This document shows, piece by piece, positions 23,630-50,949 of a stretch of 53,683 bases of DNA. Source of the stretch: an uncultured Planctomycetales bacterium. Its GTDB lineage: Bacteria > Omnitrophota > Gorgyraeia > Gygaellales > Profunditerraquicolaceae. Below the pieces are notes generated by a model that worked only from the letters and a program-made list of their open reading frames with translations, was not told where the DNA came from and did no database searches. The stretch lies in assembly GCA_964362795.1 (NCBI GenBank), contig CAYIFW010000001.1, positions 14,483 to 68,165 of the forward strand. Direction: 5' to 3'. Every line of letters begins with the position of its first letter. Position 1 is the stretch's first letter. The position numbers were made by a program, and so were the translations under genes.

Positions 23630-23632
23630 AGT

Positions 23633-25580: not shown

Positions 25581-25609
25581 TATTATTTCTCCGACAATAT
25601 TGAATTATT

Positions 25610-26681: not shown

Positions 26682-26695
26682 TAGATTAATTAAGT

Positions 26696-27682: not shown

Positions 27683-27700
27683 TATTAAATATACTTTCTT

Positions 27701-30211: not shown

Positions 30212-30650
30212 GGGAATTGTAGACAACCCGTTCATCTCCTTTCCGGTATTCATAAATAAAATGCACTCCGGGATTGCTGGCAACTAATACCGCGATTGTT
30301 TCTAAAAGATCACCTAACGGTTTAGTATCCGGATGGCTAAGCTTAAACTCCGCCACAACCTTAGTGCCTTTGGCTTCCTGCGAATCTATTTTTAAAACTC
30401 CGCCGGCTTCTTGGGTTGCCTGATGCAACAGCGAAAGCCCTAAACCGAATTTCTTTCCGTCTTTAGTCGTAAAAAAAGGGTCTTGGGCTTTTTTTAAAGT
30501 TTGCTCATCCATGCCCAGGCCATCATCTTGGACAATTACCGAGAGCCTATCCGAGGCTTCATCCTCTAAAACCTCAATGCGGATTTTCTTGGCTTTTGCT
30601 CTGATTGCGTTTTCAGCTATATCCAGGATGTGTAAAGATAAATCTTTCAT
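30204..30650 (-). CDS. Stand-alone GHKL/HATPase_c ATP-binding protein
   Basis: 148 aa. HILDIAENAIRA (N-box-like), DDGLGMD and FGLGLSLL. Confidence 0.75.
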   Translation of the reverse strand: MKDLSLHILDIAENAIRAKAKKIRIEVLEDEASDRLSVIVQDDGLGMDEQTLKKAQDPFFTTKDGKKFGLGLSLLHQATQEAGGVLKIDSQEAKGTKVVAEFKLSHPDTKPLGDLLETIAVLVASNPGVHFIYEYRKGDERVVYNSHD

Positions 30651-31385
30651 CTAAATTTTAACTTTTCTTCCTTCGACGCTTCCTAAGGCCAAATTAATCT
30701 CTGAAAACTCTAACGCCTTTAAAGAAAACACGGTCGAAGCGCTGCCGATATCCTGTAAAAAATGCGCATCGGAAAATTTAACTAACGGAAGATTATATTT
30801 CTCATATTCGGCTATTTCGCTCAAGGAATATTCAGCAGTTACTTCTAAGGCATCTAATCCTAAACCTGGCGGAATAAAACCCATCTGGCCGATGATCCCG
30901 AATGTCTGCCGGTTAATATGCGAAGCTATCGCGATACCCCCCAGGCTTTTAATTAAAGCGACAACCCTCTCCAGGCCGAGATTAACCGAACCGATTAATA
31001 GCCTGGAATTGGTTCCGATTATTTTACCATGCTCATCGGCAACTAATTGTTCGCCGAAAACAGTTTCCTTATTTTCACCGGGGAGATTCTTATAAACAAC
31101 TTCCTGCATTAAGCGCAATGATTGATCATCGCTAAAAAAACCCATAATGTGAACTTCTTCTTGAGAAGATATCTCCATTCCCCCCAGAACCAAAAGGCCG
31201 GCTTTTTTACCTGCTGCCTTCACCGCTAAAACATTTTCGGTGGAATTATGGTCGCAAATACCGATTATATCTAAAGACTTTAGCCTTGCCTGTTGAACAA
31301 TTCTATCCGGCAGCATCTGCGCATCCGCGCAAGGAGAAAGGCAGGTATGAATATGCAGATCCGCCTTAAATTCCTTTAGCAGCAT
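30651..31385 (-). CDS. PHP-domain metal-dependent phosphoesterase
   Basis: 244 aa. ADLHIHTCLSPCAD, GICDHNS and later His/Asp positions (SHINR, FSDAH). Confidence 0.8.
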   Translation of the reverse strand: MLLKEFKADLHIHTCLSPCADAQMLPDRIVQQARLKSLDIIGICDHNSTENVLAVKAAGKKAGLLVLGGMEISSQEEVHIMGFFSDDQSLRLMQEVVYKNLPGENKETVFGEQLVADEHGKIIGTNSRLLIGSVNLGLERVVALIKSLGGIAIASHINRQTFGIIGQMGFIPPGLGLDALEVTAEYSLSEIAEYEKYNLPLVKFSDAHFLQDIGSASTVFSLKALEFSEINLALGSVEGRKVKI

Positions 31386-31728
31386 TTCCTGTCCCTGTAA
31401 TCCCTAGATTATACAATCTACCGGTTAATTCAAAAGCCGCCAGTTTACTTACCATAATCGGTATTTTTTCATCTTCAGCTTTGCGCAAAGTTGCCTCTTC
31501 AGGCTCTCGAGAATTTATCAGTATAATCCCGGATAATCCTTTCATCCCGGCTACCGCGGCAATATTTTGATGGACCTGTAAAGTAATCCACAGATCCCCT
31601 TCGTTAGCGTTAGCCAACACATCGCTCAAAAGATCGCTGGCATATCCTCGTTTAACATCATAATCCAATGCCACATTTTTAGTCCTAACCTCTAAAGCTA
31701 ATTTTTCAACTATCTCTTTTAATTTCAT
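31366..31728 (-). CDS. DRTGG-domain protein
   Basis: 120 aa. SDLLSDVL...GDLWITLQVHQNIAAVA...GIILINSREP pattern. It is a paralogue of 32653-33006. Confidence 0.7.
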   Translation of the reverse strand: MKLKEIVEKLALEVRTKNVALDYDVKRGYASDLLSDVLANANEGDLWITLQVHQNIAAVAGMKGLSGIILINSREPEEATLRKAEDEKIPIMVSKLAAFELTGRLYNLGITGTGNAAKGI

Positions 31729-32656
31729 GCGGCTCTCCCTCTTTCTTCATATAGATGCTTATCTTTAAATGCGTCCCCTTGCCGACTACCGAAGTTAAAC
31801 TCATTTTATCGGCACATTTTTTAATATTACTTAATCCCATGCCGGCGCCAAACCCCAGTTCTCTAACCCACTCCGGAGCAGTGGAATATCCGGGTTGCAT
31901 CGCCTTCTCAATATCGGCGATACCCGGGCCGGTGTCCTCGACATCAATACTAATTTTATCCGGCCGCACCTTAACTTGCATCTCTCCTCCGTCAGAATGA
32001 ATAACCACGTTTAATTCTGCCTCATAAGAAGCAATCGCTGCCCGGCGAGCGATTTGAGGATCAATACCCAACCGCGAAAAATTTTTCTTTAATCCGGTGG
32101 AAACCTCTCCGGCTTTGTCAAAATCTTTGCCTTTAATATAATACCGGAAAATAATCGTAGTTTTATCGGCAATAATATCTTCGAAGATATGGCTTGCCCG
32201 ATAACGATGAATCTCTTCCTCATGGTAATCAATCTCTGTCTCTTTAAGCAATCTCTCAATGATATCGCCTTTAGTAATTACCCCTAATAATTTATTATCC
32301 GTCCGGTTAATCACCGGCAGGCGGCCGTAACCGAATTGCTCAAGCTTGCTGACCGCATGCACCAGAGGCTCATCCGAAAACAAAGTCATCACATTAACAA
32401 TCATCTTATCCTTGATCGGGCAATCTTTAGCTCCGTCAGCCAGCCATTTTATAAAATCTTCGATACTGATGATACCGACAAGCTTATTGCTATCCACAAC
32501 CGGAGTCCCTGAAATCCGGTTAATCTTTAGTATTTCCCGCAACTCGCTCATCAGAGTAGCGGGCCCAACGCTAATAACATTACTCTTCATCGCATCAGAA
32601 ACTTTTAGCTCATAGACTAACTCCTGAACTTTACTCAGCTCTCTTTCTTTATTCAT
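31706..32656 (-). CDS. CBS-pair domain fused to an anti-sigma-factor-like Ser/Thr kinase (HATPase_c_2) domain
   Basis: 316 aa. Two CBS repeats (VISVGP...GTPVVD; LPVINRTDNKLLGVITKGDI), then EAELNVVIHS, DTGPGI and GFGAGMGL. Confidence 0.8.
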   Translation of the reverse strand: MNKERELSKVQELVYELKVSDAMKSNVISVGPATLMSELREILKINRISGTPVVDSNKLVGIISIEDFIKWLADGAKDCPIKDKMIVNVMTLFSDEPLVHAVSKLEQFGYGRLPVINRTDNKLLGVITKGDIIERLLKETEIDYHEEEIHRYRASHIFEDIIADKTTIIFRYYIKGKDFDKAGEVSTGLKKNFSRLGIDPQIARRAAIASYEAELNVVIHSDGGEMQVKVRPDKISIDVEDTGPGIADIEKAMQPGYSTAPEWVRELGFGAGMGLSNIKKCADKMSLTSVVGKGTHLKISIYMKKEGEPHEIKRDS

Positions 32657-33006
32657 TTAATTTCATCGCATCCGGATAGCCCTGCCTTATACAATCTACC
32701 GCAAGCCTCAAACATAGCAAATCTGGTCTGCAAAAGCACAATCCTATTTTGCTGCGCCATTTTAATCGTATCCGGATGCGGCCCTTTATTACTGATAAAA
32801 CAAATAGCGGAAATCTCGGCAATCTCGGCAGTACGCACCACTTGAGAATTTATATTTCCGGTAACCAGTAAAGTCCCCGACCGGATATAGGCTAAAACAT
32901 TGCTCATTAGATCGGAGCCATAAGCCATAATTATCTCCTGGCTAAAATTAGAGTCTCCGTTGATTATCTCCGCTTCCAAAATATTAATTATTTCCCGTAA
33001 TTTCAT
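32653..33006 (-). CDS. DRTGG-domain protein
   Basis: I chose the ATG at 33004-33006 (MKLREIINILEAEII...), which parallels the paralogue's MKLKEIVEKL. SDLMSNVL...GTLLVTGNINSQVVRTAE. Confidence 0.7.
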   Translation of the reverse strand: MKLREIINILEAEIINGDSNFSQEIIMAYGSDLMSNVLAYIRSGTLLVTGNINSQVVRTAEIAEISAICFISNKGPHPDTIKMAQQNRIVLLQTRFAMFEACGRLYKAGLSGCDEIK

Positions 33007-33007
33007 T

Positions 33008-34816
33008 TTAATTAACCTTAATCGCTCCAAATTTACATTTTTCTAAACAGATACCGCATTTAACGCATTTATCCGGATTAATTTTATGCGGCAGCTTCTT
33101 TTCTCCGGAGATTGCTTCCGGCGGACAGCTTTTCACGCACACCGTACAGCCTACGCAAACTTTTTCATCAATAACAAATTTAAGCAACGGCTTACACATC
33201 TTAGCCGGGCATCTTTTTTCGAAAATATGCGCTTCATATTCATCCCTGAAATAAAGCAATGTGCTTAATACCGGATTAGGCAATGTCTGGCCCAAACCGC
33301 ACATGGATGAACTTTTCACCGCCGCCGAAAGCTCTCCGAGTATATCCAGATCTTCTTTTACTCCCTGCCCATTACAGATCCTCTCCAAAATTTCCAGCAA
33401 CGCGATTGATCCGTCGCGGCAGGAAGAACACTTGCCGCAGGACTCATCGCTGGTAAATTCGAGAAAATATTTCGCCAAATCCACGACACAGGTATCTTCA
33501 TCCATAACAATTAGGCCACCTGAACCCATAATCGAACCGGCCTCAGTCAACTTCTCATAATCAATCGGCAGATCAATTAATCTGGCCGGGATACACCCTC
33601 CTGAAGGGCCTCCGGTCTGCAGAGCTTTAAATTTTTTATTATTCGGAATACCTCCTCCGATATCATAGACCACTTCTTTGATCGTAATACCCATCGGAAC
33701 TTCCACTAATCCCGTGTTATTTATTTTACCGACCAGAGAAAACACTTTTGTCCCCGGGCTCTGAGCAGTACCTATCTTAGAAAACCACTGCGCTCCTCGG
33801 TCAATAATATTAGGAACGTTAGCCCAGGTCTCCACATTATTAATATTAGTCGGAAATCCCCATAACCCTGATTGAGCCGGAAACGGCGGGCGCTGGCTGG
33901 GTTCCGGGGGCCTACCCTCAATAGAAGCAATCAACGAAGTTTCTTCTCCGCAAACAAACGCTCCGGCGCCTTGTTTAATGTGCGCCTTAAAACTAAAATC
34001 TGTGCCGAAAATATTCTTACCCAAAAGGCCGTATTCTTTGGCCTGAGCAATAGCCGTTTCCATCCTCTCTCTGGCAAGCTGATACTCCTCCCGGATATAA
34101 ATATACGCTTCAGTGGCGCCGATGGCCCGGGCGCCAATCAACATCCCCTCCAATACGGCATGCGGATCAGCTTCGACAATACTTCTATCCATAAAAGCCC
34201 CCGGATCTCCCTCATCAGCATTGCAAATTATATATTTTGTATCGGCAACAGATTTCTTGCACAACTCCCATTTCTGTCCCGTGGGAAAACCGCCGCCGCC
34301 GCGGCCGCGTAAACCGGAATCTTTGATCTCCTGAATTATTCCTTCCGGAGTCATCGCCGTAAGAGCTTTAGCTAATGCCCGATAGCCACCCCTGGCGATA
34401 TATTCATCGATCTTTTGCGGATCAATTAAACCCCGATTTTTAAGCACCACTAATGTCTGACGCGAAAAAAAATCAATATCACTGATCTTGGGAATAGCGA
34501 TTTTTTCAGTAGGCGGGACAAACATAAACTTCTCCACCGGCCGGCCTTTGAGAAAATGTTCTTCTACTAGATAAGGGATCTTTTCCTCGGTCAGGCTATG
34601 ATAAAATATTCCATCCGGCATAACCGTCATCAATGGCCCGACCGCGCAAAATCCTATACAACCGGTCATCACCACGGTTACCTCTTTATCTAAACCTTGC
34701 TTGATCAGTTCAGCCTCCAACACCTGGCGGATTTTAAATGATTTATTGGAAACGCAACCGGTCCCGGCGCACAACATCAACTGCAGCCTTATTCTTTGAT
34801 CCGCTGGCTTATTCAT
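33008..34816 (-). CDS. NuoF-type NADH-binding FMN/Fe-S flavoprotein (HydB/HndC/BfuB-like)
   Basis: 602 aa. N-terminal thioredoxin-like 2Fe-2S (CAGTGC...TGCIGFCAVGP), GRGGGGFPTGQKW, NADEGDPGAF, ESCGKCSSCRDG, and two C-terminal 4Fe-4S motifs (CVGCTVCVKSCP, CVKCGICLEKC). Confidence 0.92.
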   Translation of the reverse strand: MNKPADQRIRLQLMLCAGTGCVSNKSFKIRQVLEAELIKQGLDKEVTVVMTGCIGFCAVGPLMTVMPDGIFYHSLTEEKIPYLVEEHFLKGRPVEKFMFVPPTEKIAIPKISDIDFFSRQTLVVLKNRGLIDPQKIDEYIARGGYRALAKALTAMTPEGIIQEIKDSGLRGRGGGGFPTGQKWELCKKSVADTKYIICNADEGDPGAFMDRSIVEADPHAVLEGMLIGARAIGATEAYIYIREEYQLARERMETAIAQAKEYGLLGKNIFGTDFSFKAHIKQGAGAFVCGEETSLIASIEGRPPEPSQRPPFPAQSGLWGFPTNINNVETWANVPNIIDRGAQWFSKIGTAQSPGTKVFSLVGKINNTGLVEVPMGITIKEVVYDIGGGIPNNKKFKALQTGGPSGGCIPARLIDLPIDYEKLTEAGSIMGSGGLIVMDEDTCVVDLAKYFLEFTSDESCGKCSSCRDGSIALLEILERICNGQGVKEDLDILGELSAAVKSSSMCGLGQTLPNPVLSTLLYFRDEYEAHIFEKRCPAKMCKPLLKFVIDEKVCVGCTVCVKSCPPEAISGEKKLPHKINPDKCVKCGICLEKCKFGAIKVN

Positions 34817-34823
34817 AATTTAG

Positions 34824-35207
34824 CTAATAAATCCTCTCATTGCCCTTGGCCAACACATATTCATTAATAATTTTCCCGCCCAGTATATGCTCGGTTAATA
34901 TCCTGCGGATTTTCTCCGGATTTAAATCGGCGTATTTTATCGGAGTTTCGCCTTTAATCTCTACCGTAGCCATCGGCTCCCGGCTGCATAAACCGGCGCA
35001 CCCTGAGCTGGTTATAACAACATCATTAATATTTCTTTTCTCAAATTCTTCTAAAAGGACATTCATTATTTCTCTAGCCCCGGCAGAAATACCGCAGGTC
35101 CCCATATGCACGGTTATTTTTGCCCGCCCGGCACCCTCTTGCAAAAGAGTAGTTTTTTTAACCCGCTGCGTAATCTTATCTAAATCTTCAATGCTTATTT
35201 TTTTCAT
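34824..35207 (-). CDS. Thioredoxin-like 2Fe-2S ferredoxin (HndB-like)
   Basis: 127 aa. MGTCGISAGA...SGCAGLCSREP. Confidence 0.8.
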   Translation of the reverse strand: MKKISIEDLDKITQRVKKTTLLQEGAGRAKITVHMGTCGISAGAREIMNVLLEEFEKRNINDVVITSSGCAGLCSREPMATVEIKGETPIKYADLNPEKIRRILTEHILGGKIINEYVLAKGNERIY

Positions 35208-36163
35208 ACACTGGCCTCTTTATATTTTTTTATTAAATTCACCACTTTATTTTGATCCATAATCCCGCAGATCTCTTCGCCGACTTTTAACACCGGCGCC
35301 AGACCGCAGCAACCCAGGCAACGCACAGTCTTAAGCGTAAAAAGCATATCTTCGGTAGTCTGGCCTCTTTTTATTTTCAACTCTTCCTCGAGGGCATAAA
35401 GAACTTTTTCAGCCCCCTTAACATGGCAGGCGGTTCCGGTGCAAACAGTAATTACATTCTTACCGATCGGCACTAAACTAAAAGAACTATAAAAAGTCGC
35501 CGTGCGATAAATTAAACTTAAAGGTATATTCAGGTCCTTAGACACATGCTTGAGAATGGCTTCCGGAAGGTAATTGTAGGTTTTATTAATCCTCTGCAAA
35601 ATAGGAACCACCGCTTCCTCTACCTGTTCATAGGCATCGCTGATTTGCTTTAATTTGGCCTGATCATCCGAATCAAACTTAATCTTATGCATTCTTTCCG
35701 TTGACGGCAAAATTTCTTGCTGCACGATCTTAAAACTCCAGCGTAATTTCGCGTCAAAAGAGCGCCTTCTAATTATTGTCTTAACCGTCTCCAGAAAATC
35801 AGGAATCATTATCTCAATATCTTTTTTTATTTTAACCTGACAAGCCAGGCGCATATTTGAAAGCCTCTCCTCCCTACTCATAAAGGCTTCTTCCGTAGGA
35901 AGCAGCGACTCGCCGCCGCTTAACACTTTTACCTTGCAATATCCGCAACTAGCCTTACCACCGCAAGCGCTAGATATATTAATCTTATTTTCCGTCAAAA
36001 CCGGCAGAAGAAAACCGCCTCCTTGAACAATAAATACTTTTTTCTCATCATTCTGGTTTACGGTTACCTTGCATTCCCCGTAAGTAACCAGATACTTCTC
36101 GGCTATTAAAAGGATTATGGCAATTACCACCAAAACCATGTTCATTATGAAAATAGCTATCAT
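35204..36163 (-). CDS. Fusion protein: TM helix plus NqrF-type plant-like 2Fe-2S ferredoxin domain plus NuoE/HydC-type thioredoxin-like 2Fe-2S domain
   Basis: 319 aa. N-terminal MIAIFIMNMVLVVIAIILLIAEKYL, then SACGGKASCGYCKVKV...LACQV (NqrF N-terminal pattern). There is no FAD/NADH domain. The C-terminal half carries ATFYSSFSL.P.GK..I.VCTGTACHVKGA...CLGCCGLAP (NuoE pattern). ATGA overlaps occur at both ends. Confidence 0.8.
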   Translation of the reverse strand: MIAIFIMNMVLVVIAIILLIAEKYLVTYGECKVTVNQNDEKKVFIVQGGGFLLPVLTENKINISSACGGKASCGYCKVKVLSGGESLLPTEEAFMSREERLSNMRLACQVKIKKDIEIMIPDFLETVKTIIRRRSFDAKLRWSFKIVQQEILPSTERMHKIKFDSDDQAKLKQISDAYEQVEEAVVPILQRINKTYNYLPEAILKHVSKDLNIPLSLIYRTATFYSSFSLVPIGKNVITVCTGTACHVKGAEKVLYALEEELKIKRGQTTEDMLFTLKTVRCLGCCGLAPVLKVGEEICGIMDQNKVVNLIKKYKEASV

Positions 36164-36753
36164 TGTAAGGTAATTATTCCGGCAAAACCCGTAAAAGCCA
36201 GCGCCATTAATCCGGCTACAATCATCGTAATACCTGAACCACGCAGCCCTTCGGGAATATCACTAACTAACAATAATTTCTCTTTGATTGCCGCCATAAG
36301 CACAATTGCCAATGCCCAGCCGGCGGAGGTGCCTAAAGAATAACATACGGTCTGGATAAAAGAATATTTTCTTAAAACCATAAATAAAGAAACCGCTAGA
36401 ACTATACAGTTGACGGTAATCAACGGCAAAAATATCCCGAATGAAGATTGCAGGGGAGGAAAGAATTTCTCAATAATCATTTCCAATAGCTGCACCGTAG
36501 CGGCAATAACAATAATAAAAATCAGGTAGGAAATAATCTCGGCATGCGCCGGCACCAGAATTTTCCAATAGATCGGCCAGTTAATTACCGCAGTTAGTGT
36601 AACTACGAAAATAATGGAGAGCCCCATACCGCTGGCGGTTTTCAGATTTCTAGAAATAACAATCAGCGGGCACATCCCCAAGATGTAAGCTAAAGCGATA
36701 TTATGGGTGAAGATAGACGCGACCAGTAATACCCAAGGATTAGTGGGATTCAT
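36160..36753 (-). CDS. nqrE: NqrE/RnfA-family membrane subunit
   Basis: 197 aa. LGMCP, VQLLEMIIEKFFPPL, GIFLPLITVNC and GLRGSGITMIVAGLMALAF, close by eye to Vibrio NqrE as I recall it. Confidence 0.85.
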   Translation of the reverse strand: MNPTNPWVLLVASIFTHNIALAYILGMCPLIVISRNLKTASGMGLSIIFVVTLTAVINWPIYWKILVPAHAEIISYLIFIIVIAATVQLLEMIIEKFFPPLQSSFGIFLPLITVNCIVLAVSLFMVLRKYSFIQTVCYSLGTSAGWALAIVLMAAIKEKLLLVSDIPEGLRGSGITMIVAGLMALAFTGFAGIITLQ

Positions 36754-36755
36754 CT

Positions 36756-37388
36756 CTAATTACTCTCTTTCTTAAATATCGTCCTAAATATCCACAGATA
36801 CACGCCCAAAAGAAAAAACGCTCCCGGGGCAATCGTTAAAATAACCCAATTCTCCCAGAAAGCCGGCATCACTCTGTGCCCAAAAAATGTCCCAAAACCC
36901 AGCGGCTCCCGAATAAATGCCATCAGAATCAACATAAAACTATAACCTAAACCGGAACCTATCCCGTCTAAAAAAGAAAACCACGGCCCGTTTTTAATCG
37001 CATACCCCTCAGCTCTACCCATCAGAATACAGTTAGTAATAATCAAGCCGACATACGGGCCCATCGCCTCGCTGATCGGAGGAAAATACGCCTTAAGAAA
37101 TCTATCCACGCAAATAACAAAAGTAGCAATAATCGTCATATAAGCCAGCATTCTTACTCTGGAAGGTATAACGTTTCTCAACAAAGAAACCAGAAGCGAG
37201 CCAAAGGCTGTGCAAAAAGTAACACCGATACCCATAGCAAAGGCGTTATCCATCCGGTTAGTAATCGCCAAGGAAGAACAAATACCTAAAATCATACAAA
37301 AAATAGGGTTCTCCTGGATGACGCCAAAAGTCAGGGCCTTAAACCACCCGGCCTGGCTAATTTTCTTTTTATTCTTATCTATCGCCAT
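36756..37388 (-). CDS. nqrD: NqrD/RnfE-family membrane subunit
   Basis: 210 aa. LGICSSLAIT, VDRFLKAY, VGLIITNCILMGRAEGYA and DGIGSGLGY. Confidence 0.85.
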   Translation of the reverse strand: MAIDKNKKKISQAGWFKALTFGVIQENPIFCMILGICSSLAITNRMDNAFAMGIGVTFCTAFGSLLVSLLRNVIPSRVRMLAYMTIIATFVICVDRFLKAYFPPISEAMGPYVGLIITNCILMGRAEGYAIKNGPWFSFLDGIGSGLGYSFMLILMAFIREPLGFGTFFGHRVMPAFWENWVILTIAPGAFFLLGVYLWIFRTIFKKESN

Positions 37389-37391
37389 CGA

Positions 37392-37964
37392 CTACCCTTT
37401 CAACGCAGACAAATATTTCTGCACATTTTCATTAATCAATTTCTCCAAGGCCCGGCTGGAACCGGTTGCCCCGGTTATCGCGTCCACTTCATTTTTTTGC
37501 CTAGATGTCCCTTCGGCAACAAAAACTAATTTAGGCAGAACCTCTTTATTTTTAAAATTTTTCAGGTAATCCTGATCGCCGATCCTGCTGCCTAATCCGG
37601 GAGTCTCCTCTTGATAAGTGATTTTAATTTTACGAATAGTCTTTAAATCTTTCTCCAGGCTGATAATACCGGAAATCGGCCCCCACAATCCCGGACCGTG
37701 GAATTCAAAAGCAATCCCCCCATCAACAGCGCTATAAAAAGTATAAATATCTTTATTTACAGTTTTTACCTGAGCGTCAAATATTTTTATCACGCTATCT
37801 TTAGCATAAGCAATTTCAAGAGCTGCCAATATCGAGGATTTTAATTTCAATTCGTCATTTTTAGCAATTAAATAAGCTGTGGAAAGATTTATCCCTAAGA
37901 GCAGGCCTCCGGAGATCGAGCCCATCAATATCACAAAAATTATTACTCTTATGGCGTTTTTCAC
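37392..37964 (-). CDS. nqrC: NqrC/RnfG-family FMN-binding subunit
   Basis: 190 aa. N-terminal TM helix, HGPGLWGPI, ETPGLG and the flavinylation motif DAITGAT. Confidence 0.8.
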   Translation of the reverse strand: MKNAIRVIIFVILMGSISGGLLLGINLSTAYLIAKNDELKLKSSILAALEIAYAKDSVIKIFDAQVKTVNKDIYTFYSAVDGGIAFEFHGPGLWGPISGIISLEKDLKTIRKIKITYQEETPGLGSRIGDQDYLKNFKNKEVLPKLVFVAEGTSRQKNEVDAITGATGSSRALEKLINENVQKYLSALKG

Positions 37965-39031
37965 TGGGTTTTATACCTCAATTTCAATACGACCGAATCG
38001 ATCAACGGAGTAAAAACATTAACTAAAAGTATGCTAAACATTACCCCTTCGACATAGCCTGAAAACCCGCGGATTAAAGCGGTAAGTATGCCCAATAAAA
38101 CTCCGGCCACCCATTTTCCCGGTTTAGTAAACGGGCTGGTTACCGGATCGGTGGCCATAAAAAACGCGCCGAGAAGCAGCCCGCCGGATAAAAGCTGAAA
38201 CGCCGGAGCCGCCAGATGGCTATGAAAAAAAGTATTGCCGATTAAAGCAAATAACGGCGCGGTAATTAAATAAGCTAATGGGATACGCCAGTCGACTATT
38301 TTGGTAAAAATTAAAAATAAGCCTCCGGCAATTATACCGATGCGAAAAGTCTCGCCGATACAGCCGGCGCCTGAGCCAAGCAGCATATTTATCCAGGGAG
38401 TAACGATACCCTGATTTTTAAACAACACCAAAGGGGTGGCCTTAACAATCGCATCGATAGTATTCTGATAATGCGCCAACCCTCCCCAGCCTGAAGAAAA
38501 TGGCACCTGCCAATTTACCGACATTATCCTGGGGAAAGCGACGCTTAAAAAAATCCTTCCCACAATCGCCGGATTAAAAATATTCCTACCAGTGCCGCCA
38601 AAAGCCTCTTTGCCGAAGATCACCCCGAACATTATTCCCACCGCCACGATCCATAACGGCACCCCGGGTGGCAAAATCAAAGGAAAGATAAGCCCGGTGA
38701 CCAGAAAGCCTTCATGGATTTCTTTTTTGCGGACAATAGCAAACCCAACTTCGACCAGGCCGCCAAAAATATAAGATACCGCAATCACCGCCAAAACCCG
38801 CAAACCCCAAAAATACACCGAAGCGATAACCACCGGAACCAAAGCAATCACCACCATAAACATAAATCTTTTTATATCCAGGTAATCGGTAATATGCGGA
38901 ATAATATTTATTTTATCCGTGCCAAAAAGCGCCTCATCCGCGGCATTTAAAATCGGCTTCAACGGATTAAGATATTTATTTTTCTCAATTACCGCCTGAA
39001 TCTTTTTTAAGGCTGTTCTGATGATTTTCAT
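37961..39031 (-). CDS. nqrB: NqrB/RnfD-family membrane subunit
   Basis: 356 aa. NqrB-like N-terminal extension (KKIQAVIEKNKYLNPLKPILNAADEALF...LDIKRFMFMV), DAIVKATPL (candidate FMN-Thr site) and FFMATDPVTSP. Confidence 0.85.
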   Translation of the reverse strand: MKIIRTALKKIQAVIEKNKYLNPLKPILNAADEALFGTDKINIIPHITDYLDIKRFMFMVVIALVPVVIASVYFWGLRVLAVIAVSYIFGGLVEVGFAIVRKKEIHEGFLVTGLIFPLILPPGVPLWIVAVGIMFGVIFGKEAFGGTGRNIFNPAIVGRIFLSVAFPRIMSVNWQVPFSSGWGGLAHYQNTIDAIVKATPLVLFKNQGIVTPWINMLLGSGAGCIGETFRIGIIAGGLFLIFTKIVDWRIPLAYLITAPLFALIGNTFFHSHLAAPAFQLLSGGLLLGAFFMATDPVTSPFTKPGKWVAGVLLGILTALIRGFSGYVEGVMFSILLVNVFTPLIDSVVLKLRYKTQ

Positions 39032-40434
39032 TTTTTAACGTGGAATCCTTCGGCTAATAATTTTTTCTGGCCTTCCTGAATATATTTTAATAACGGTATT
39101 TTTGACGGGCAGACAAAACTGCATAAACCGCATTCAATACAATTAAAAATTTCATAATTGATCAAAATCTCATCAATAATCTCTTTGCGGACATATTTAA
39201 CTAATAAGTGCGGGATAATCATTGCCGGGCAGCTATACTCGCAAAAACCGCAGGATATACAAGGCCTTTCTTCGCCATGCTGATTAGTATCCACGGATTT
39301 TTTTATCCCCGGAAGCCAATGCGCCAGAAACGCTCTGCTGTAAGAATCCTGCCTGCACCCGGGCCGCGCAAAAGCTAAAAATTCTCTTCCTTTACTATCA
39401 GCAATAGCAATAATCTGCGCAAACGTCTTATCGATAGGAGACAAAAGAGCCTTTAATTCCTGGCCGGTAAACAAACTATTCAAGATTAACCTTATCGATT
39501 CATCGGATTTCAACCTACCCTCGATAATTTCATGCAAAGGCGTCCCCAGGCGCACCTTTAAATGAATATTCTCTTTAAAAGAAGGCCCGCTTAAGGCGAC
39601 AATCTTTTCAATAAAAGGCTTCCCTAAAGCTACCGCATCATAGACAGCTAATACCTCCTCTGCCGACAACAGGATTACGCCAATATCAGATGCGCAACCG
39701 CCATGCGGAATTTTTTTCTGCAACAAGGTTGATAAAAGCACTTGCTGGCAACCTTGAGGATATTTCGGCTCAACCGTACAAAGATTAAACCAATCCAAAT
39801 GCGCCGTTAATTTAGAAATTTCATTAATTATTTTCTTATTTTTCCGGCTGAACACCAAATTAACTTGAGCCGAGGGCATAATCTTTTTTAATATATTTAT
39901 CCCTGCGATAAAATTTAACGTATTTTCCCCTTCTAAAATTAAATCTAAGGAATAATTATAAGGTTCCGAGGCTGTCTCCTGGACAATAATCTGCGTAATC
40001 TTTCCCGAAGAATCCGCGGGTAAGCCTAACGCCCCGGAAAGAAAAATTAATTCTTTTATTTTTTCATTATTTAATTTCTGCCAGGAAGCCAGCTGGCCTC
40101 CCAGGGGTTTAACTTGACGGGAAGTATCACTACTGCGGATGACAATTATCGCAGATTCGCTTTTTGACTCCTTCGGATACTTAATATCTTCGACAATACC
40201 ATTCACCGAAGCATGCGCCGGGCTTAAAATATCAGCAGCATCTTTACCGATTATTTGGCCGGCAAAAACTATATCTCCTTTTTTTACCAGGGGTTTTACT
40301 TCAGCCTTAGAACTTCGGCTCAACGGAATAAGCACCCGTAAAGGAAGCTCGGCTAATGAAAGCAGCGGTTTGGCTTGGCCGGGATAATTCTTAAACCTGA
40401 AGCCTCCCTTAAATGTGCGTAAATGCTTTAACAT
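39028..40434 (-). CDS. NqrA/RnfC-family peripheral subunit that retains two [4Fe-4S] motifs
   Basis: 468 aa. N-terminal barrel-like VLIPL...VKKGDIVFAGQIIG, KYPQG, and C-terminal CISCGFCEYSCP and CIECGLCSFVCPSK. I saw no GGAGFPT-type flavin/NADH motif (GALGLPADSSGK occupies that position). Confidence 0.8.
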   Translation of the reverse strand: MLKHLRTFKGGFRFKNYPGQAKPLLSLAELPLRVLIPLSRSSKAEVKPLVKKGDIVFAGQIIGKDAADILSPAHASVNGIVEDIKYPKESKSESAIIVIRSSDTSRQVKPLGGQLASWQKLNNEKIKELIFLSGALGLPADSSGKITQIIVQETASEPYNYSLDLILEGENTLNFIAGINILKKIMPSAQVNLVFSRKNKKIINEISKLTAHLDWFNLCTVEPKYPQGCQQVLLSTLLQKKIPHGGCASDIGVILLSAEEVLAVYDAVALGKPFIEKIVALSGPSFKENIHLKVRLGTPLHEIIEGRLKSDESIRLILNSLFTGQELKALLSPIDKTFAQIIAIADSKGREFLAFARPGCRQDSYSRAFLAHWLPGIKKSVDTNQHGEERPCISCGFCEYSCPAMIIPHLLVKYVRKEIIDEILINYEIFNCIECGLCSFVCPSKIPLLKYIQEGQKKLLAEGFHVKK

Positions 40435-40487
40435 AAGCGTTTTTTCAATATTGACCGGTTAAATGGGGATTAAATAAATGAAGATTA

Positions 40488-40516
40488 TTTATAGCACCTG
40501 TTAGCGCTATTGGCAA
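40488..40516 (-). promoter_or_regulatory. Candidate sigma70 promoter of the NQR-like operon
   Basis: On the minus strand: TTGCCA (40516-40511), a 17-nt spacer, then TATAAA (40493-40488), 54 nt upstream of the ATG at 40434. Confidence 0.4.
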
Positions 40517-40568
40517 GTATTTTTTATCTAATTTGCCTTAAATTACCGAACCAACCAGGACAGCCGAT

Positions 40569-40973
40569 TTATTCGGTTTTAGTAGCAATATTCAAATTTT
40601 TAATGCCCAATTCGTTAAATATATCCAAGAGCCCCACAATATCCTTGAACCTGACCATCCGATCCGAAAACAAAATCACCTCTAAAGCCGGATTAGCCTG
40701 ATACAGCTTGGCGACATCGGTTTTAAGCGCCTTCTTTAAAGTCAGCTTATTATCCAAATAAATCAAACCTTCGCTGGTTATCATAATATTAACTTGCCTG
40801 GCATCCTTATTCGGTTCTCCGGTTGTTGAGCTGGGTAAATTAATTTTAATATTTGACTGCATAACCAGCGGCGTGGTAACCATAAATATAGCCATCAACA
40901 CCAAAATTATATCCGTAAACGGAGCAGTATTTATCTCGGTGAATGCCTTCTGCCTTCTGGTGGGATTTCTCAT
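40569..40973 (-). CDS. exbD: ExbD/TolR biopolymer transport protein
   Basis: 134 aa. Single N-terminal TM helix (PFTDIILVLMAIFMVTTPL) and a periplasmic domain. Confidence 0.88.
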   Translation of the reverse strand: MRNPTRRQKAFTEINTAPFTDIILVLMAIFMVTTPLVMQSNIKINLPSSTTGEPNKDARQVNIMITSEGLIYLDNKLTLKKALKTDVAKLYQANPALEVILFSDRMVRFKDIVGLLDIFNELGIKNLNIATKTE

Positions 40974-41587
40974 TTTTTTATTATGCTGATCAAATCCATA
41001 GTTTCAGAAGCCGCTAACTCCATATCCTTAATAAAATCATCTATCTTTTTCATAAAATAATTGTACGCGGCTACCGCTGGTACGGCTACACAAAGCCCCG
41101 CAGCCGTGGTCGATAATGCCTCTGATATTCCACCGATAATCACGCCTATGCCTCCGGAACCGCTAATCGACACATCGTGAAAAGCCTTCAGTATTCCCAA
41201 GATCGTTCCCAAGAGCCCAATATAAACGGCAACGCTTCCGATCGTGCCAACCCCTGAAGTAAAACGTTCCAGGGTAACGGTCTCAATAATAATCTGTCGC
41301 TCCATATTATTAGATATCTCTTTTTCACTGCAATCAAGAAAGCTTAAGCCTGCGTGAGTTACTTGGGCAAAAGGAGCGTTGCTGCTTTCGCATATTTTTA
41401 TTGCCCGGCCTAGATCTTTATTTTTAAGTTCCTGACGGATAGTTAACATAAAATCCTTACGCTTAAGTTTGGCTTTTTTACGATAGAAAATAAACCTCTC
41501 TAAAATAATAGCTACGGATACTACCGACATAACTAAAAGCACAACCATGGTAACGCCGCCAATTTTAACTAAATACCATATATTCAT
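40970..41587 (-). CDS. exbB: MotA/TolQ/ExbB proton channel protein
   Basis: 205 aa with three TM segments and GTIGSVAVYIGLLGTILGI...ALSTTAAGL. GGAGG precedes the ATG. Confidence 0.88.
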   Translation of the reverse strand: MNIWYLVKIGGVTMVVLLVMSVVSVAIILERFIFYRKKAKLKRKDFMLTIRQELKNKDLGRAIKICESSNAPFAQVTHAGLSFLDCSEKEISNNMERQIIIETVTLERFTSGVGTIGSVAVYIGLLGTILGILKAFHDVSISGSGGIGVIIGGISEALSTTAAGLCVAVPAVAAYNYFMKKIDDFIKDMELAASETMDLISIIKK

Positions 41588-41642
41588 AATAAATCCTCCA
41601 ATTAGGCCTATTTTACACTAAATTTTTAAAAAGTCTTGATTT

Positions 41643-43085
41643 TTATAGCTTAGGCAGGGTGGAATCACCCATCAGATATTTATCAATATGATGGGCAGCT
41701 CGCCGGCCTTCAGCGATCGCCCAGACAATCAGTGACTGGCCACGGCGCATATCTCCACAGGCAAACACTTTTTTCTTAGAGGTCATAAAATTGTCGCCGG
41801 TTTTTACATTTCCTTTATTATCCAAATCTAACTTAAGCTCCTCAATAATCCCTTTTTTCTCAGGATGCAAAAACCCTAAAGCCAAAATTACCAGATCCGC
41901 CTGGATTTCAAACTCTGAACCCACTATCTCCTGCAGTATCGAACACCCCGAAGCATCTTGCTTAAATTCAACTCTTACGCAAGAAAGTTTTTCTACTTTA
42001 CCAGCTGAGCCGATAATTTTCTTGGTTAATACCGACCAATCTCTTTGCCCGCCCTCATCATGGCTAGTAGAAGATTTAAGTAAAAGCGGATACTTGGGCC
42101 AAGAATAATCCTGGGTGCGGCAAATCGGAGGTTTAGGCATAATTTCTATCTGGCTAACGCATGTTGCGCCCTGACGGTGCGCCACCCCGACACAATCCGC
42201 TCCGGTATCTCCGCCTCCGATAACCACTACATTTTTATTTTTAGCATCAATCAATTTATCCGCCGGTATTATCTGACCTTCTATTCTTTTATTAGATTGA
42301 ATTAAATACTCCATGGCAAAATTTACTCCAGCCAAGTTCCTGTCTTCAATATTCAGATCCCGCGGAAAACGTGATCCACAGGCAATAGAAACCGCATCAA
42401 ACTCATTAAGCAATTGCTTAATTTCATAATCAACCCCTATATTTGCACTGGTCTTAAATTTTATTCCTTCTTTTTCTAAAATCTTGACCCTGCGATCAAT
42501 TATCTTTTTTTCCAGCTTAAACTCAGGAATACCGTAGCGCAAAATTCCACCAACGGCATCATCTCTTTCAAAAACTGTTACCCTATGCCCGGCCGAATTT
42601 AATTGGTCCGCGCAAGCCAGTCCCGCCGGGCCTGAACCAACCACCGCGATTTTTTTGCCTGTTCTTTGCTTAACAATCCGCGGTTTAATCAGTCCATGCT
42701 TAAAAGCGTATTCAATAATGCCCAATTCATTCTCCCGAATGGTTACCGGATCATCATTAATTCCCAAAACACAGGCATATTCACAAAGCGCCGGACAAAT
42801 TCTTCCGGTAATCTCAGGAAAATTATTCGTAGCCTCGAGTAAATCCAAAGCTTTCTCCCATTGATTATGAAAAACAAGGTCATTGTATTCCGGTATATAA
42901 TTACCGATGGGGCAGCCGCAGTGGCAAAAAGGCGTGCCGCAATCCATACAGCGCGATGACTGTTCCTTATTTTGAGTTTCGCTGCGCAATAAATTAACCT
43001 CGGCGAAATCTTTTATTCTTTCGCAAACCGGCCGATACGTTCCCGGCTGTCGCTTAACTTTTAAAAATCCCTTTGGATCACCCAT
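41643..43085 (-). CDS. gltD: Glutamate synthase small subunit (NADPH)
   Basis: 480 aa. CMDCGTPFCH, CPALCEYAC, VVGSGPAGLACA, VIGGGDTGADC and ACGDMRRGQSL. Confidence 0.93.
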   Translation of the reverse strand: MGDPKGFLKVKRQPGTYRPVCERIKDFAEVNLLRSETQNKEQSSRCMDCGTPFCHCGCPIGNYIPEYNDLVFHNQWEKALDLLEATNNFPEITGRICPALCEYACVLGINDDPVTIRENELGIIEYAFKHGLIKPRIVKQRTGKKIAVVGSGPAGLACADQLNSAGHRVTVFERDDAVGGILRYGIPEFKLEKKIIDRRVKILEKEGIKFKTSANIGVDYEIKQLLNEFDAVSIACGSRFPRDLNIEDRNLAGVNFAMEYLIQSNKRIEGQIIPADKLIDAKNKNVVVIGGGDTGADCVGVAHRQGATCVSQIEIMPKPPICRTQDYSWPKYPLLLKSSTSHDEGGQRDWSVLTKKIIGSAGKVEKLSCVRVEFKQDASGCSILQEIVGSEFEIQADLVILALGFLHPEKKGIIEELKLDLDNKGNVKTGDNFMTSKKKVFACGDMRRGQSLIVWAIAEGRRAAHHIDKYLMGDSTLPKL

Positions 43086-46000
43086 CGGTATACTCTCCTA
43101 AATCCGCTTTTTTGGCAGACTTAGTCTGCTCCAATATACGCTTGTATTCTAAAGGCATAACTTTAATAAAAATTCCGGAATATTTGCGGAAATTATCCAA
43201 GACTTCTTTAGCTTGGGGGCTTTGTGTATATTTATGGTGATTAAATAATAAATTTTTAATCGTCTCTACGTCTCCAACATCTATTTTCTCTAAAACTACC
43301 ATATCTAAATTGCATCTTTTCTTAAAATCGCTTCCCTCATCCAGGCAATAAGCAATCCCACCGGACATCCCTGCCCCAAAATTCCTTCCGGTTCTTCCTA
43401 AAACCACAACCCTGCCTCCGGTCATATACTCGCATCCGTGATCTCCTAATCCTTCAACCACCGCATTTAATCCGGAATTTCTAATGCAGAATCTTTCTCC
43501 GGCAATTCCCCTGATATACGCTTCTCCGCTAATTGCTCCATAAAAAGTGGTATTGCCGATAATAATATTTTTATCCGTCGGATAATCCGTTTTTCTATCC
43601 GGGTAAATTATAATTTTGCCTCCGGATATTCCTTTGCCCACATAATCATTAGCCATTCCTTCCAGCGTAAAAGTAACCCCCTTGGCTAAGAAGGCCCCAA
43701 AACTTTGCCCGGCTATCCCTTTAAAATTACATTTAATCGTATCGGGCGGCAATCCGCTTTCCCCGAATCTTCTACAAACCTCTCCGCTTAACATCGCCCC
43801 GGTAGCACGATTTACATTTTCGATTCTCTGATCCATCCGCACAGATTGAGATTGATCTAATGCCGGTTTAGCTAGTTCTATAAGTTTTAGATCCAGAATT
43901 TTATCCAGGCCGTGGTCCTGTTTTTTAGAATAATGCGTAATTACCGATTCCGGAACAAGTGGCTTATAAAGAATTTTAGAAAAATCGATTTCTTTAGCCT
44001 TCCAGGGTAGGATCTCCTGATTTAATTCCAGCAGATCTACTTTACCAACCATATCCTCTAATTTTCTTAGGCCTAGAGAACTCATAATTTGGCGCAGTTC
44101 ATTGGCAATAAAAGTAAAATAATTTATAATAAATTCCGGCCGGCCGGTAAATCTTTTTTCTAAGACCTCATCCTGAGTGGCAATTCCGACCGAACAATTA
44201 TTTAAATTACAATGCCGCAACATTACGCATCCTAAGACAATTAACACTGCAGTACAGAATCCAAATTCCTCAGCGCCCAATAAAGCGGCAATGGCGACAT
44301 CGCGTCCGGTACGCATCTGGCCGTCGGTTTGCAGTCGCACTCTACTGCGTAAATCATTTAGCACTAAAGTCTGATGCGTCTCTGCCAGGCCTAACTCCCA
44401 AGGAAGGCCAGCATATTTAATTGAACTCAAAGGAGAAGCACCGGTGCCTCCGTCCTGGCCTGAAATGAGAATCATATCCGCATGCCCCTTGGCCACGCCG
44501 GCGGCTATCGTACCTACACCGATTTCAGAAACTAATTTTACGCTAATCCGCGCTTGGGGATTTACATTTTTTAGATCAAAAATAAGCTGCGCTAAATCTT
44601 CAATCGAATAAATATCATGATGCGGAGGAGGAGATATTAATGTAACTCCGGGTGTGGTATAACGGGTCTTGGCGATTATTGCGCTCACCTTATGCCCGGG
44701 AAGCTGGCCACCTTCTCCGGGTTTTGCGCCCTGAGCCATCTTAATCTGTATTTCATCGGCATTAATTAAATAATTTGTGGTTACACCGAATCGTCCGGAA
44801 GCAACCTGCTTGATTGCGCTCCGAACAGAATCACCGTTAGGAAATGGAGTAAAACGCACAGGATCTTCTCCTCCTTCTCCGGTATTAGATCTACCTTTTA
44901 ATCTATTCATGGCAATGGCGATTGTTTCATGCGTAGAGCGGCTAATTGAACCGAAGCTCATTGCTCCGGTAGCAAACCTTTTGACAATTTCTTCAACCGG
45001 CTCAACTTCATCTAAGGCAATAGTGTTTTGGATTTTAAATTTCAGCAGGCTTCTTAAAGTAGTCGGATTAGCCGACTGATCATTAATCAAATTGGAAAAC
45101 TCCTGATATTTTTTGGCATCATTATTACGCGCCGCGTCCTGTAAAGCAGCAATACTCTGAGGGTTCCAGAGATGAAATTCTCCGTCGCGTTTCCACTGAT
45201 AAAGGCCGCCTGAGGAAAGATAATTTTCACTCTGAGGCCGTCTCGGGAATGCCTCTTGATGGCGCATAATCGTCTCTTTAGCAATTACATCTAAAGCTAC
45301 GCCGTTAATCCTGGAAGAGGTACCGGCAAAATATTTATCAATTACATTTTTATTTAATCCCACCGCTTCAAAAATCTGGGCTCCGCGGTAACTTTGCAAA
45401 GTTGAGATACCCATTTTAGAAAGAACTTTAAGAATTCCCTTATCAATGGCTTTGATATAATTATGTTTTGCCTTAGCTGCATCCAGATTAAGCTCTTTAT
45501 CTTGGGCCATCTTCTCCAAAGCTTTGAAAACAAGATACGGATTAACGCAATCCACTCCGTAGGCAAAAAGTAGGGCAAAATGGTTTACCTCGCGCGGCTC
45601 AGCACTTTCTAAAATAATACCAATCTGAGTCCGCAAAGAACGTTGCACTAAATAGTGGTGCAGCGCTGAGACTGCCAAAAGGCTGGGAATACCGGCATAA
45701 TCCCTTCTGACTCCCCGATCACTTAAAATAATGAAGGTATAGCCATTTTTTATTGCCGCTTCTGCTTCCTTAAATATTTTCTTAAGCTCTTTAGAAAAAT
45801 CTATTCTTCCATCTACCTTAAAAAGCAATGAAATAGTTTTAGTTTTAAAACCGTTCTTTTTTATTTTACATATCTTAGCCATCTCGCTATCGCTTAAGAT
45901 CGGCCGGCTCACTAATAATTTGTGGCAATGGCTTTGCCCATCGCTTAAAATATTTTCTTCCGGCCCTAAATAACTTGCTAAGCTCATTACCAATTCTTCG

Positions 46001-50943: not shown

Positions 50944-50949
50944 ATGTTT

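Follow-up and report, generated by a model that had tools for sequence, protein, structure and literature searches.

The ion-translocating RNF and NQR complexes are both treated as fixed six-subunit designs, and RnfB or NqrF is, to our knowledge, the only input module with which they are known. A 2025 review of the RNF/NQR family describes NqrA as a subunit without cofactors and NqrF as a recruited FNR-type reductase, and neither NqrA homologues with Fe-S clusters nor inputs of the NuoEF type are mentioned in it. In the survey of the Bfu family by Schut et al. (2022; PMC9304861), Nuo-Bfu and Mbh-Bfu are the predicted membrane-bound members; “Nqr” appears nowhere in its text, and “Rnf” appears in a reference only. 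The system called “NQR/RNF-like” in a survey of flavinylation is a different one, having an NqrB with a fused NAD-binding domain, and papers on Omnitrophota merely list “Nqr.” Here, we focused on a minus-strand operon in a 53.7-kb stretch of contig CAYIFW010000001.1 (the window, to which all coordinates refer unless a locus name precedes them). This operon combines two known families in an architecture for which we found no description in the literature searched, including the Bfu survey and the RNF/NQR review; the coverage of that search was limited, and an earlier mention elsewhere is possible. Its genes probably encode one membrane complex, namely, an NQR-type ion-translocating quinone (most likely menaquinone) reductase with a HydABC-derived input module that consists of BfuB, BfuC, BfuA, and a HydD-like protein.

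Eight open reading frames (ORFs) run on the minus strand from position 40434 to 33008, with 4-nucleotide overlaps or gaps of at most 7 nucleotides, and their products were identified by Pfam and NCBIfam profile searches. The first five encode subunits A to E of an RNF/NQR-type core, and the sixth (35204 to 36163; 319 amino acids) encodes a fusion protein. In the latter, a transmembrane (TM) helix and an NqrF-type [2Fe-2S] domain (about residues 1 to 130) are connected by a linker to a [2Fe-2S] domain of the NuoE/HydC type (about residues 165 to 319), which represents BfuC. Residues 2 to 128 match positions 3 to 128 of the nqrF model TIGR01941 (E value, 6e-34), residues 163 to 315 match NuoE/HoxE (1e-40; PF01257, 5e-46), and no FAD_binding_6 or NAD_binding_1 domain was found with Pfam and NCBIfam. 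Compared with solved structures, the N terminus matches residues 8 to 131 of Vibrio cholerae NqrF (86.7 bits), whereas the NuoE part is closer to NfnC/HydC (138 to 124 bits) than to NuoE of complex I (78 to 90 bits). The cysteines of both domains (C67, C73, C76, and C108; C241, C246, C282, and C286) are invariant in a 15-sequence alignment. A preliminary description of the locus had read the sixth gene in the same way, as a TM helix, an NqrF-type 2Fe-2S domain, and a NuoE domain lacking any FAD/NAD-binding part, and the matches place its N terminus inside the NqrF ferredoxin family.

The same description had considered that the fusion might be an assembly chimera. This origin can be rejected, since the identical protein occurs on 15 contigs from independent samples and since at least 120 homologues share the two-domain layout. 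A homologue search with the fusion protein yielded 2,555 matches in a large protein collection, of which the best 120 are all 308 to 337 amino acids long, are 49 to 100% identical to it, and each contain both the Fer2 and the NuoE-type domain. The source names among the matches include Desulfobacterales, Latescibacterota, Spirochaetota, Planctomycetota, and Poribacteria. When a genome collection was scanned with the alignment of the fusion protein, mostly ordinary NuoE/HydC proteins were retrieved, together with at least 5 informative loci among the matches listed.

The gene two positions further downstream encodes the NADH-binding, flavin mononucleotide (FMN)-containing subunit BfuB/HydB (33008 to 34816; 602 amino acids). 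It aligns without gaps and over its full length with HydB of the bifurcating NiFe hydrogenase of A. mobile (7t2r_B, 849 bits, compared to 394 bits for Nqo1). According to Schut et al. (2022; PMC9304861), a BfuB is defined by Nuo51 FMN-binding, SLBB, NuoF 4Fe-4S, and ferredoxin-type 4Fe-4S domains, and the five ligands of its unusual B2 cluster, including a histidine lacking in non-bifurcating homologues, are diagnostic. The protein encoded here carries this domain set: an N-terminal thioredoxin-like 2Fe-2S domain, PF01512, PF10589, Fer4, and Fer4_21 (with two [4Fe-4S] sites at the C terminus), as well as an SLBB domain that scores 25.7 bits, just below the 27-bit cutoff. All of the B2 [2Fe-2S] ligands are present at the aligned positions (C443, C481, H530, C536, and C541), and all five Fe-S sites of Bfu enzymes are retained.

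Between the fusion gene and the BfuB gene lies a gene for a HydD/HndB-like thioredoxin-fold protein (34824 to 35207; 127 amino acids), matched by PF01257 at 23 bits, below the cutoff. Thioredoxin-like [2Fe-2S] ferredoxins have four cysteines. The HydD-like protein has only three, at positions 38, 70, and 74, so its binding of a [2Fe-2S] cluster is uncertain; a histidine lies beside the position of the missing cysteine. Of the two genes that the preliminary description had named here, the 602-amino-acid NuoF-type subunit was borne out, whereas the label “HndB-like 2Fe-2S protein” fits the second in its relationship but not securely in its cofactor. A HydD-like gene is present in most HydABC loci.

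The unit does not end at 33008, where the preliminary description had stopped; its eight ORFs stand, and the system continues on the minus strand from 40434 to at least 29639. Past the BfuB gene, profile searches identified five regulatory-type genes and a BfuA gene on the same strand, followed by genes for MenA, a polyprenyl synthase, and ApbE. The regulatory cassette comprises a DRTGG-domain protein (32653 to 33030; PF07085, detected on the identical gene in locus L001), whose start is uncertain (117 amino acids according to gene callers); an anti-sigma-kinase-like protein with a CBS pair and a HATPase_c domain (31706 to 32656); a second small DRTGG-like protein of 120 amino acids (31366 to 31728), whose position is kept in L004, L088, L089, and HydABC loci; a PHP-domain phosphoesterase (30651 to 31385); and a stand-alone HATPase_c protein (30204 to 30650). 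The BfuA gene (29639 to 30283, with the true start likely at Met25, position 30211) encodes a truncated Fe-S protein that resembles the N terminus of HydA/NuoG/HoxU and carries a Fer2_4 [2Fe-2S] domain and two [4Fe-4S] motifs; its best match among solved structures is the small, 247-amino-acid BfuA of Wor-Bfu (9mqx_A, 137 bits). Thus, the module has both the NuoE-like BfuC with a [2Fe-2S] cluster and the BfuA with 2Fe-2S and 4Fe-4S domains that characterize the Bfu family. A scan of positions 25000 to 41700 for promoters and terminators gave counts at the level expected from shuffled sequence and hence does not define the operon boundaries, and an Rfam scan of the window gave no matches.

The order of these genes is not peculiar to the window. 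About 75 ordinary NuoE/HydC loci commonly show the order NuoE, HydD, HydB, DRTGG, CBS-HATPase, DRTGG, PHP, HATPase, HydA, and there the HydA homologue has 571 to 613 amino acids and includes the H-cluster domain, versus 151 to 229 amino acids in NQR-linked loci. This indicates that BfuA has lost its H-cluster domain in the NQR-linked loci, and the fact that the loss occurred precisely there leaves the Bfu module without another catalytic partner. Judged by gene content, more than NuoEF was brought in: the module corresponds to an entire HydABC-type (Bfu) operon cassette in which HydA is truncated. The replacement of the NqrF reductase put forward in the preliminary description is upheld in this sense, with a module larger than the NuoEF-type unit proposed there.

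To what the replacement relates can be seen in the closest relatives of the A-to-E genes, which are Omnitrophota loci (52 to 79% identity in the case of L064). The sixth slot in L064, L085, L086, and L087 holds an NqrF of 351 to 360 amino acids composed of a TM helix, Fer2, FAD_binding_6, and NAD_binding_1, and it is followed by UbiA/MenA and polyprenyl synthase genes, as in the window. An FNR-type NqrF in the same slot of the closest relatives, together with the same downstream genes, directly supports module replacement. The A subunit of the Omnitrophota FNR-type clusters is, as in the window, Fe-S-bearing and FMN-less, and a Spirochaetales locus (L084) is likewise of the FNR type. The TM and Fer2 segment of the window aligns with the NqrFs of the Omnitrophota FNR-type loci, and in a single neighbor-joining tree of the ferredoxin domain, built without bootstraps, every NuoE-fused domain falls into a single clade, which has the Omnitrophota FNR-type NqrF as its sister and lies nested within the short FNR-type NqrFs. 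Observed directly in these loci were gene content, fusions, cofactor ligands, synteny, and, by comparison with the nearest relatives, the exchange of the FNR domain.

Clusters with the Bfu-type input were found in the window, in L004 (Latescibacterota), L005 (Pirellulales), L006 (Desulfofustis), and L007 (Planctomycetota), and in L088, L089, and L090. They keep the order of A to E, fusion, BfuB, and BfuA, with the HydD gene and the regulators being optional, so the fusion of Fer2 and NuoE, for which the preliminary description had suggested a synteny search, recurs in several phyla with conserved gene order. Lineages with the fused architecture thus include Latescibacterota, Planctomycetota, and Desulfobacterota, among others. 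When the N-terminal 135 residues were used for an exhaustive search, a single chain of 759 amino acids (protein P0128, L091:10001-12280) was also found, in which the TM helix, Fer2, NuoE, and NuoF are all joined. Its gene lies after A to E and before a 186-amino-acid BfuA, with ApbE and porin genes upstream, and the chain lacks the C-terminal ferredoxin-type domain of Bfu enzymes. Two further variants were noted. In L089, a 1,027-amino-acid BfuB (L089:11364-14447) is fused to a GltD/NfnB-like domain (Fer4_20 plus Pyr_redox_2), which suggests an NADPH-linked, Nfn-Bfu-like variant on the same pump. In the Latescibacterota metagenome-assembled genome, a second RNF/NQR-like cluster (L004:17218-20960) follows the BfuA gene of the first at a distance of ~500 bp; it comprises A′ (472 amino acids, with Fer4 matches), B′, C′, and D′, and the sixth gene lies past the end of the locus DNA.

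These loci bear on the notion that the operon merely juxtaposes two unrelated enzymes, one being a pump of the NQR/RNF type and the other a soluble oxidoreductase of the Bfu type that acts on an unknown third substrate. It is true that the Bfu genes and their regulators form a mobile cassette, which appears in many genomic contexts, and the GltD/NfnB-like domain of the L089 BfuB would suggest an autonomous, NADPH-linked activity. However, the NqrF-type TM helix and ferredoxin domain are covalently fused to BfuC in at least 120 proteins and to both NuoE and NuoF in the single chain of L091, and the catalytic domain of BfuA has been lost in NQR-linked loci only. Moreover, these operons contain no other nqrF or rnfB, so the pump would be left without an input module. 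We consider it very improbable that the two halves are unrelated. An RnfB polyferredoxin is absent from the operon, the 53.7-kb window, and the related loci, as the preliminary description had noted for this operon; its further question, whether a canonical nqrF or rnfB exists elsewhere, is answered in the negative for the 53.7-kb window, which is the extent of the DNA checked.

The core itself was compared subunit by subunit with its RNF and NQR counterparts. The A subunit (39028 to 40434; 468 amino acids), which matches RnfC_N, part of Complex1_51K, NQRA_SLBB, and a 4Fe-4S dicluster domain, scores higher against RnfC (7zc6_C, 142 bits) than against NqrA (55 bits) among solved structures. In the alignment with RnfC, the FMN loop GMGGATFPTHVKL is nevertheless deleted, and this glycine-rich loop is deleted or degenerate throughout the A-subunit clade. 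Almost all named homologues of the A subunit are from Omnitrophota, which makes an origin of the window in this phylum probable. Two complete CxxCxxCxxxCP motifs (C392/395/398/402 and C432/435/438/442) are invariant among 22 homologues. Having two [4Fe-4S] motifs and no FMN loop, the A subunit is neither a canonical NqrA nor a canonical RnfC. Its AlphaFold2 model (predicted local distance difference test [pLDDT] score, 73) is usable for residues 1 to 345 only, with the Fe-S domain poorly modeled; a Foldseek search with it placed RnfC (E value, 3e-28) and NqrA (2e-22) about equally close (TM score, ~0.65 to 0.7).

The membrane part leans toward NQR. The B subunit (37961 to 39031; 356 amino acids; NQR2_RnfD_RnfE, PF03116, E value of 9e-100) scores 190 bits against NqrB and 180 bits against RnfD, and its N-terminal half is clearly NqrB-like (103 versus 71 bits). 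Its motif IFGGLVEV aligns with IVGGFWEV of NqrB, i.e., with G140, G141, and E144 (GG-x-x-E), where RnfD has SC or SS. We take G140 and G141 of NqrB to have a role in its quinone site. The two glycines have been assigned to the quinone/korormicin site (PMC4014512). The B subunit further contains the flavinylation motif DAIVKAT at residues 193 to 199. The C subunit (37392 to 37964; 190 amino acids; FMN_bind), a periplasmic FMN carrier, has the Bacteroidetes NqrC 3lwx as its best match among solved structures, with HGPGLWGP aligned to HGAGLWGP, and a flavinylation motif, DAITGAT, at residues 161 to 167. The D subunit (36756 to 37388; 210 amino acids) is closer to NqrD than to RnfE in the comparison with structures (186 versus 157 bits) and closer to NqrD than to RsxE in NCBIfam (233.7 versus 171 bits), and the E subunit (36160 to 36753; 197 amino acids) is closer to NqrE than to RnfA in both (178 versus 152 bits and 193.5 versus 184.9 bits, respectively). 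Both cluster cysteines of D (GIC and TNC) and both of E (GMC and VNC) are aligned, so that the four cysteines of the intramembrane [2Fe-2S] cluster correspond to those of V. cholerae NqrD and NqrE.

None of the subunits reaches the cutoff of its NCBIfam Nqr equivalog (scores and cutoffs: A, 164/450; B, 288/414; C, 66/144; D, 233.7/235; E, 193.5/247.6), and B alone passes the rnfD subfamily cutoff. Given the scores of the individual subunits, the motifs of the A subunit, and the unreached Nqr cutoffs, the core forms, as judged by bit-score comparisons, a lineage of its own within the RNF/NQR family; its membrane part is NQR-like, and its A subunit is intermediate between RnfC and NqrA. The ORFs and profile matches bear out the five overlapping NqrA-to-NqrE/Rnf-type genes of the preliminary description, and the motifs named there (HGPGLW, VGLIITNCILMGRAE, and FLKAY) are present. 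Its view that the details are NQR-like holds for D, E, C, and the GG motif of B but needs qualification elsewhere: the N-terminal extension of B is ~32 amino acids relative to RnfD, the NqrB-specific insertion (residues ~90 to 128) is absent, and the equivalog cutoffs are not reached. Likewise, the “NQR-like pump” proposed there stands for the membrane part, whereas the core as a whole, with its Fe-S-bearing A subunit, falls between RNF and NQR as a clade of its own.

An A subunit of this kind invites an RNF-like interpretation, in which the complex would be a ferredoxin:NAD+ oxidoreductase whose two cytoplasmic path ends both dock on the Bfu module, with quinone uninvolved. Electrons would pass from ferredoxin through the C-terminal clusters of BfuB, BfuC, the NqrF-type ferredoxin domain, D/E, and C to B, and would return from B through the A-subunit [4Fe-4S] clusters and BfuA to the FMN of BfuB and NAD+, with ions being pumped in this closed loop. 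The two invariant [4Fe-4S] motifs of A are as in RnfC, in Wor-Bfu a small BfuA provides the Fe-S “plug” by which an Fe-S partner is connected, BfuA is found in every Bfu-type locus, and BfuB has retained its ferredoxin-interacting domain. Against these points, the FNR-type sister clusters share the Fe-S-bearing A subunit yet have no BfuA, FNR-type and Bfu-type clusters alike have MenA and polyprenyl synthase genes linked to them, B has the NqrB-type GG motif that is absent in RnfD, and L091 keeps the architecture without the ferredoxin-type domain of BfuB. On balance, we regard such a loop as unlikely. A specific docking of BfuA on the A-subunit clusters was downgraded for the first of these reasons, the FNR-type sisters keeping those clusters without BfuA.

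The genes next to the operon are informative about the electron acceptor. Downstream of BfuA lie genes for MenA (1,4-dihydroxy-2-naphthoate polyprenyltransferase; 28720 to 29706; TIGR00751, 116.8 bits, cutoff of 102.15), a long-chain polyprenyl diphosphate synthase (27701 to 28720), and the ApbE flavin transferase (26696 to 27682; NF007774, E value of 1.5e-36), all three as given in the preliminary description. ApbE is needed for flavinylation of the B and C subunits. A UbiA-family gene adjoins the clusters of L064, L085 to L088, and L090, and a polyprenyl synthase gene is linked to those of L005, L064, and L085 to L089; among the Bfu-type clusters, one or the other adjoins those of the window, L005, L088, L089, and L090. 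A cassette resembling that of a ribosomally synthesized and posttranslationally modified peptide, composed of an ORF of 41 to 49 amino acids and of PqqD-like and radical SAM genes, lies between the NQR-like operon and the UbiA gene in L085 (15517-16929), L087 (15671-17128), and L090 (13477-14978), that is, in FNR-type and Bfu-type loci alike.

From sequence and synteny, we infer a physical complex, an order of its clusters, a quinone acceptor, ion pumping, and any role of ferredoxin. In the path that we favor, NADH would be oxidized at the FMN of the 602-amino-acid BfuB, and electrons would move via the [4Fe-4S] cluster of BfuB and then the clusters of the truncated BfuA to the NqrF-type [2Fe-2S] domain. 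Given its TM anchor and the ~40-residue linker to BfuC, this domain would act as a swinging shuttle. It would hand electrons to the intramembrane [2Fe-2S] cluster of D/E, from which they would reach C, with its covalent FMN, then the covalent FMN and the riboflavin of B, and finally menaquinone, with Na+ or H+ being exported as in Na+-NQR. The analogy to complex I and the universal retention of BfuA suggest this path, which is also supported by the finding that L091, despite its minimal NuoEF fusion, still has a BfuA. In addition, none of the Bfu-specific clusters is missing from BfuB, which has the histidine-ligated B2 cluster as well as the C-terminal ferredoxin-type domain; the complex may therefore oxidize NADH and reduced ferredoxin together (confurcation), a reaction predicted for Nuo-Bfu by Schut et al. 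(PMC9304861).

In favor of an NQR-type quinone reductase with a HydABC-derived input are the covalent link of the NqrF-type TM helix and ferredoxin domain to BfuC, with eight cluster cysteines invariant across phyla, and the combination of the D/E cluster cysteines, the flavinylation motifs of B and C, the NqrB GG/E motif, and an ApbE gene in the operon. Several points weigh against it. The proposed path makes no use of the two invariant [4Fe-4S] clusters of the A subunit, and since the third substrate joins via BfuA in known Bfu enzymes, whereas here the tether is on BfuC, the point of hand-over is a guess. The features of bifurcation may be inherited baggage, given that electron transfer from NADH to menaquinone needs no ferredoxin and that the NuoF part of L091 lacks the ferredoxin-type domain. 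Furthermore, the quinone site of B is putative, the assembly of pump and Bfu proteins is predicted from their genes, and the AlphaFold2 model of the fusion protein, built from the 15-sequence alignment, has a mean pLDDT of 56.7 (below 50 in the ferredoxin domain) and was too poor for a fold search. A more far-reaching version, in which the complex would be a third membrane-bound Bfu class that merges electrons of NADH and ferredoxin through an NQR-type pump to menaquinone and in which the A-subunit clade would be a surviving RNF-NQR intermediate, is possible but tentative. If it were true, the origin of NQR-type quinone reductases would lie outside the Bacteroidota-centered scenario.

Further genes of the window are related to redox metabolism. 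An NfnAB-like pair (405 to 2727) encodes a GltD-like protein with Fer4_20 and Pyr_redox_2 (467 amino acids) and a DHODB-type Fe-S/NAD-binding protein (304 amino acids), which may form a ferredoxin/NADH:NADP+ transhydrogenase or a sulfide dehydrogenase. A gene cluster for a cytoplasmic NiFe hydrogenase (4703 to 9620) comprises the large subunit, an Oxidored_q6 small subunit, the HycI protease, a group 3b-like FAD/NAD plus DHODB Fe-S subunit, and an unusual ORF of 432 amino acids with HupF/HypC and radical SAM domains. Beside it, ~29 kb downstream of the operon in the minus-strand direction, lies a rex gene (4062 to 4703). A Rex-type repressor gene (Put_DNA-bind_N plus CoA_binding) is also found directly upstream of the A gene in L085 (9321-9944) and L088 (5066-5725). 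The NfnAB-like genes and the hydrogenase indicate that pools of ferredoxin, NADH, and NADPH are actively managed, which is one argument for running the complex in reverse, so that the ion gradient would drive electrons of menaquinol via the core into the Bfu module, to be bifurcated to NAD+ and ferredoxin as a supply of low-potential reductant for biosynthesis. Bfu enzymes are reversible and accept mid-potential electrons from a third partner (Schut et al., PMC9304861), and RNF-family pumps are reversed in some organisms (2025 RNF/NQR review). Yet electrons would have to be raised over a very large potential difference, from menaquinol to ferredoxin, at the expense of one ion each, the sister enzymes of the FNR type resemble ordinary NADH dehydrogenases, and Rex, a sensor of NADH, directly upstream of related operons fits NADH disposal. 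We therefore think it improbable that reverse operation is the function of the complex, even more so than the ferredoxin:NAD+ loop.

Genes for a NapC/NirT-family multiheme quinol dehydrogenase, a c554-type cytochrome, and ResB/CcsA maturation proteins (12311 to 15522) indicate a quinone-based electron chain, and similar multiheme genes lie downstream of the FNR-type cluster of the Omnitrophica locus L064 (14292-15631). A heme block (16829 to 25580) with two NirDL/AhbAB-like proteins, three radical SAM proteins, HemB, CobA-HemD, HemC, and HemA points by its composition to the siroheme-dependent alternative heme pathway. Upstream of the operon are an ExbB/ExbD pair (40569 to 41587) and a nitrogen assimilation block (41643 to 53656) encoding the large and small subunits of glutamate synthase, a type III glutamine synthetase, and two ammonium transporters; in L085 and L086, too, Amt and P-II genes precede the NQR-like operon.

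The operon shows that the input module of these pumps is exchangeable: an NADH module of the complex I/hydrogenase type, which retains the full set of cofactors that serve flavin-based bifurcation, was grafted via the NqrF ferredoxin domain, and this arrangement has spread across phyla. It thereby provides a natural test of the NqrF ferredoxin shuttle detached from its own flavin, as well as a candidate enzyme for coupling the oxidation of ferredoxin and NADH to quinone reduction and ion pumping in anaerobes, and a lineage with an Fe-S-binding NqrA homologue bears on the role of NqrA and on the origin of NQR from RNF. Current annotations name the proteins “NuoE family protein,” “4Fe-4S dicluster protein,” or “NqrA” (in L064 and L085 to L087, only “NqrA” or “4Fe-4S dicluster protein”). 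Under such names, the system goes unseen when the metabolism of Omnitrophota, Planctomycetota, Latescibacterota, and Desulfobacterota is reconstructed.

Among the known systems, Na+-NQR shares with the window the order of a six-position operon, the higher scores of D, E, C, and the N-terminal half of B over their Rnf counterparts, the four D/E cluster cysteines, the flavinylation motifs and the GG/E motif of NqrB, the input through an NqrF-type TM helix and [2Fe-2S] domain, an A subunit without an FMN site, and the linkage to menA and apbE. It differs in that the sixth gene of the window has NuoE fused in place of the FAD/NADH FNR-like domain, that A keeps two [4Fe-4S] motifs where NqrA is cofactor free, that B is shorter, with its flavinylation site in an RnfD-like ATPL context, and that every subunit scores below the Nqr equivalog cutoffs. 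The RNF complex (RnfABCDGE; 7zc6, 8ahx, and 9eri) has a homologous membrane core, its RnfC is closer to the A subunit of the window (142 versus 55 bits), which keeps both [4Fe-4S] clusters, and B lies above the rnfD subfamily cutoff; in contrast to RNF, the window has no RnfB, the FMN/NAD loop of RnfC is deleted, the input is an NqrF-type ferredoxin domain, and the operon is linked to quinone biosynthesis genes.

With the Bfu family (HydABC-type enzymes, Nuo-Bfu, Mbh-Bfu, and the Wor-Bfu 9mqx), the window has in common the BfuB domain set with the B2 histidine, a NuoE-like BfuC, a minimal BfuA, and a HydD-like protein with the DRTGG/CBS-HATPase/PHP/HATPase cassette of ordinary HydABC operons. 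In contrast to members of that family, the module of the window has an NQR/RNF-type pump as its partner, its BfuC is joined to an NqrF-type ferredoxin anchored in the membrane, and its BfuA has no H-cluster domain. The NQR-like clusters of Omnitrophota (L064 and L085 to L087), finally, agree with the window in their A-to-E genes, their FMN-less Fe-S A subunit, and the UbiA/MenA and polyprenyl synthase genes, and differ from it in having an FNR-type NqrF of 351 to 360 amino acids in the sixth position and no Bfu genes.

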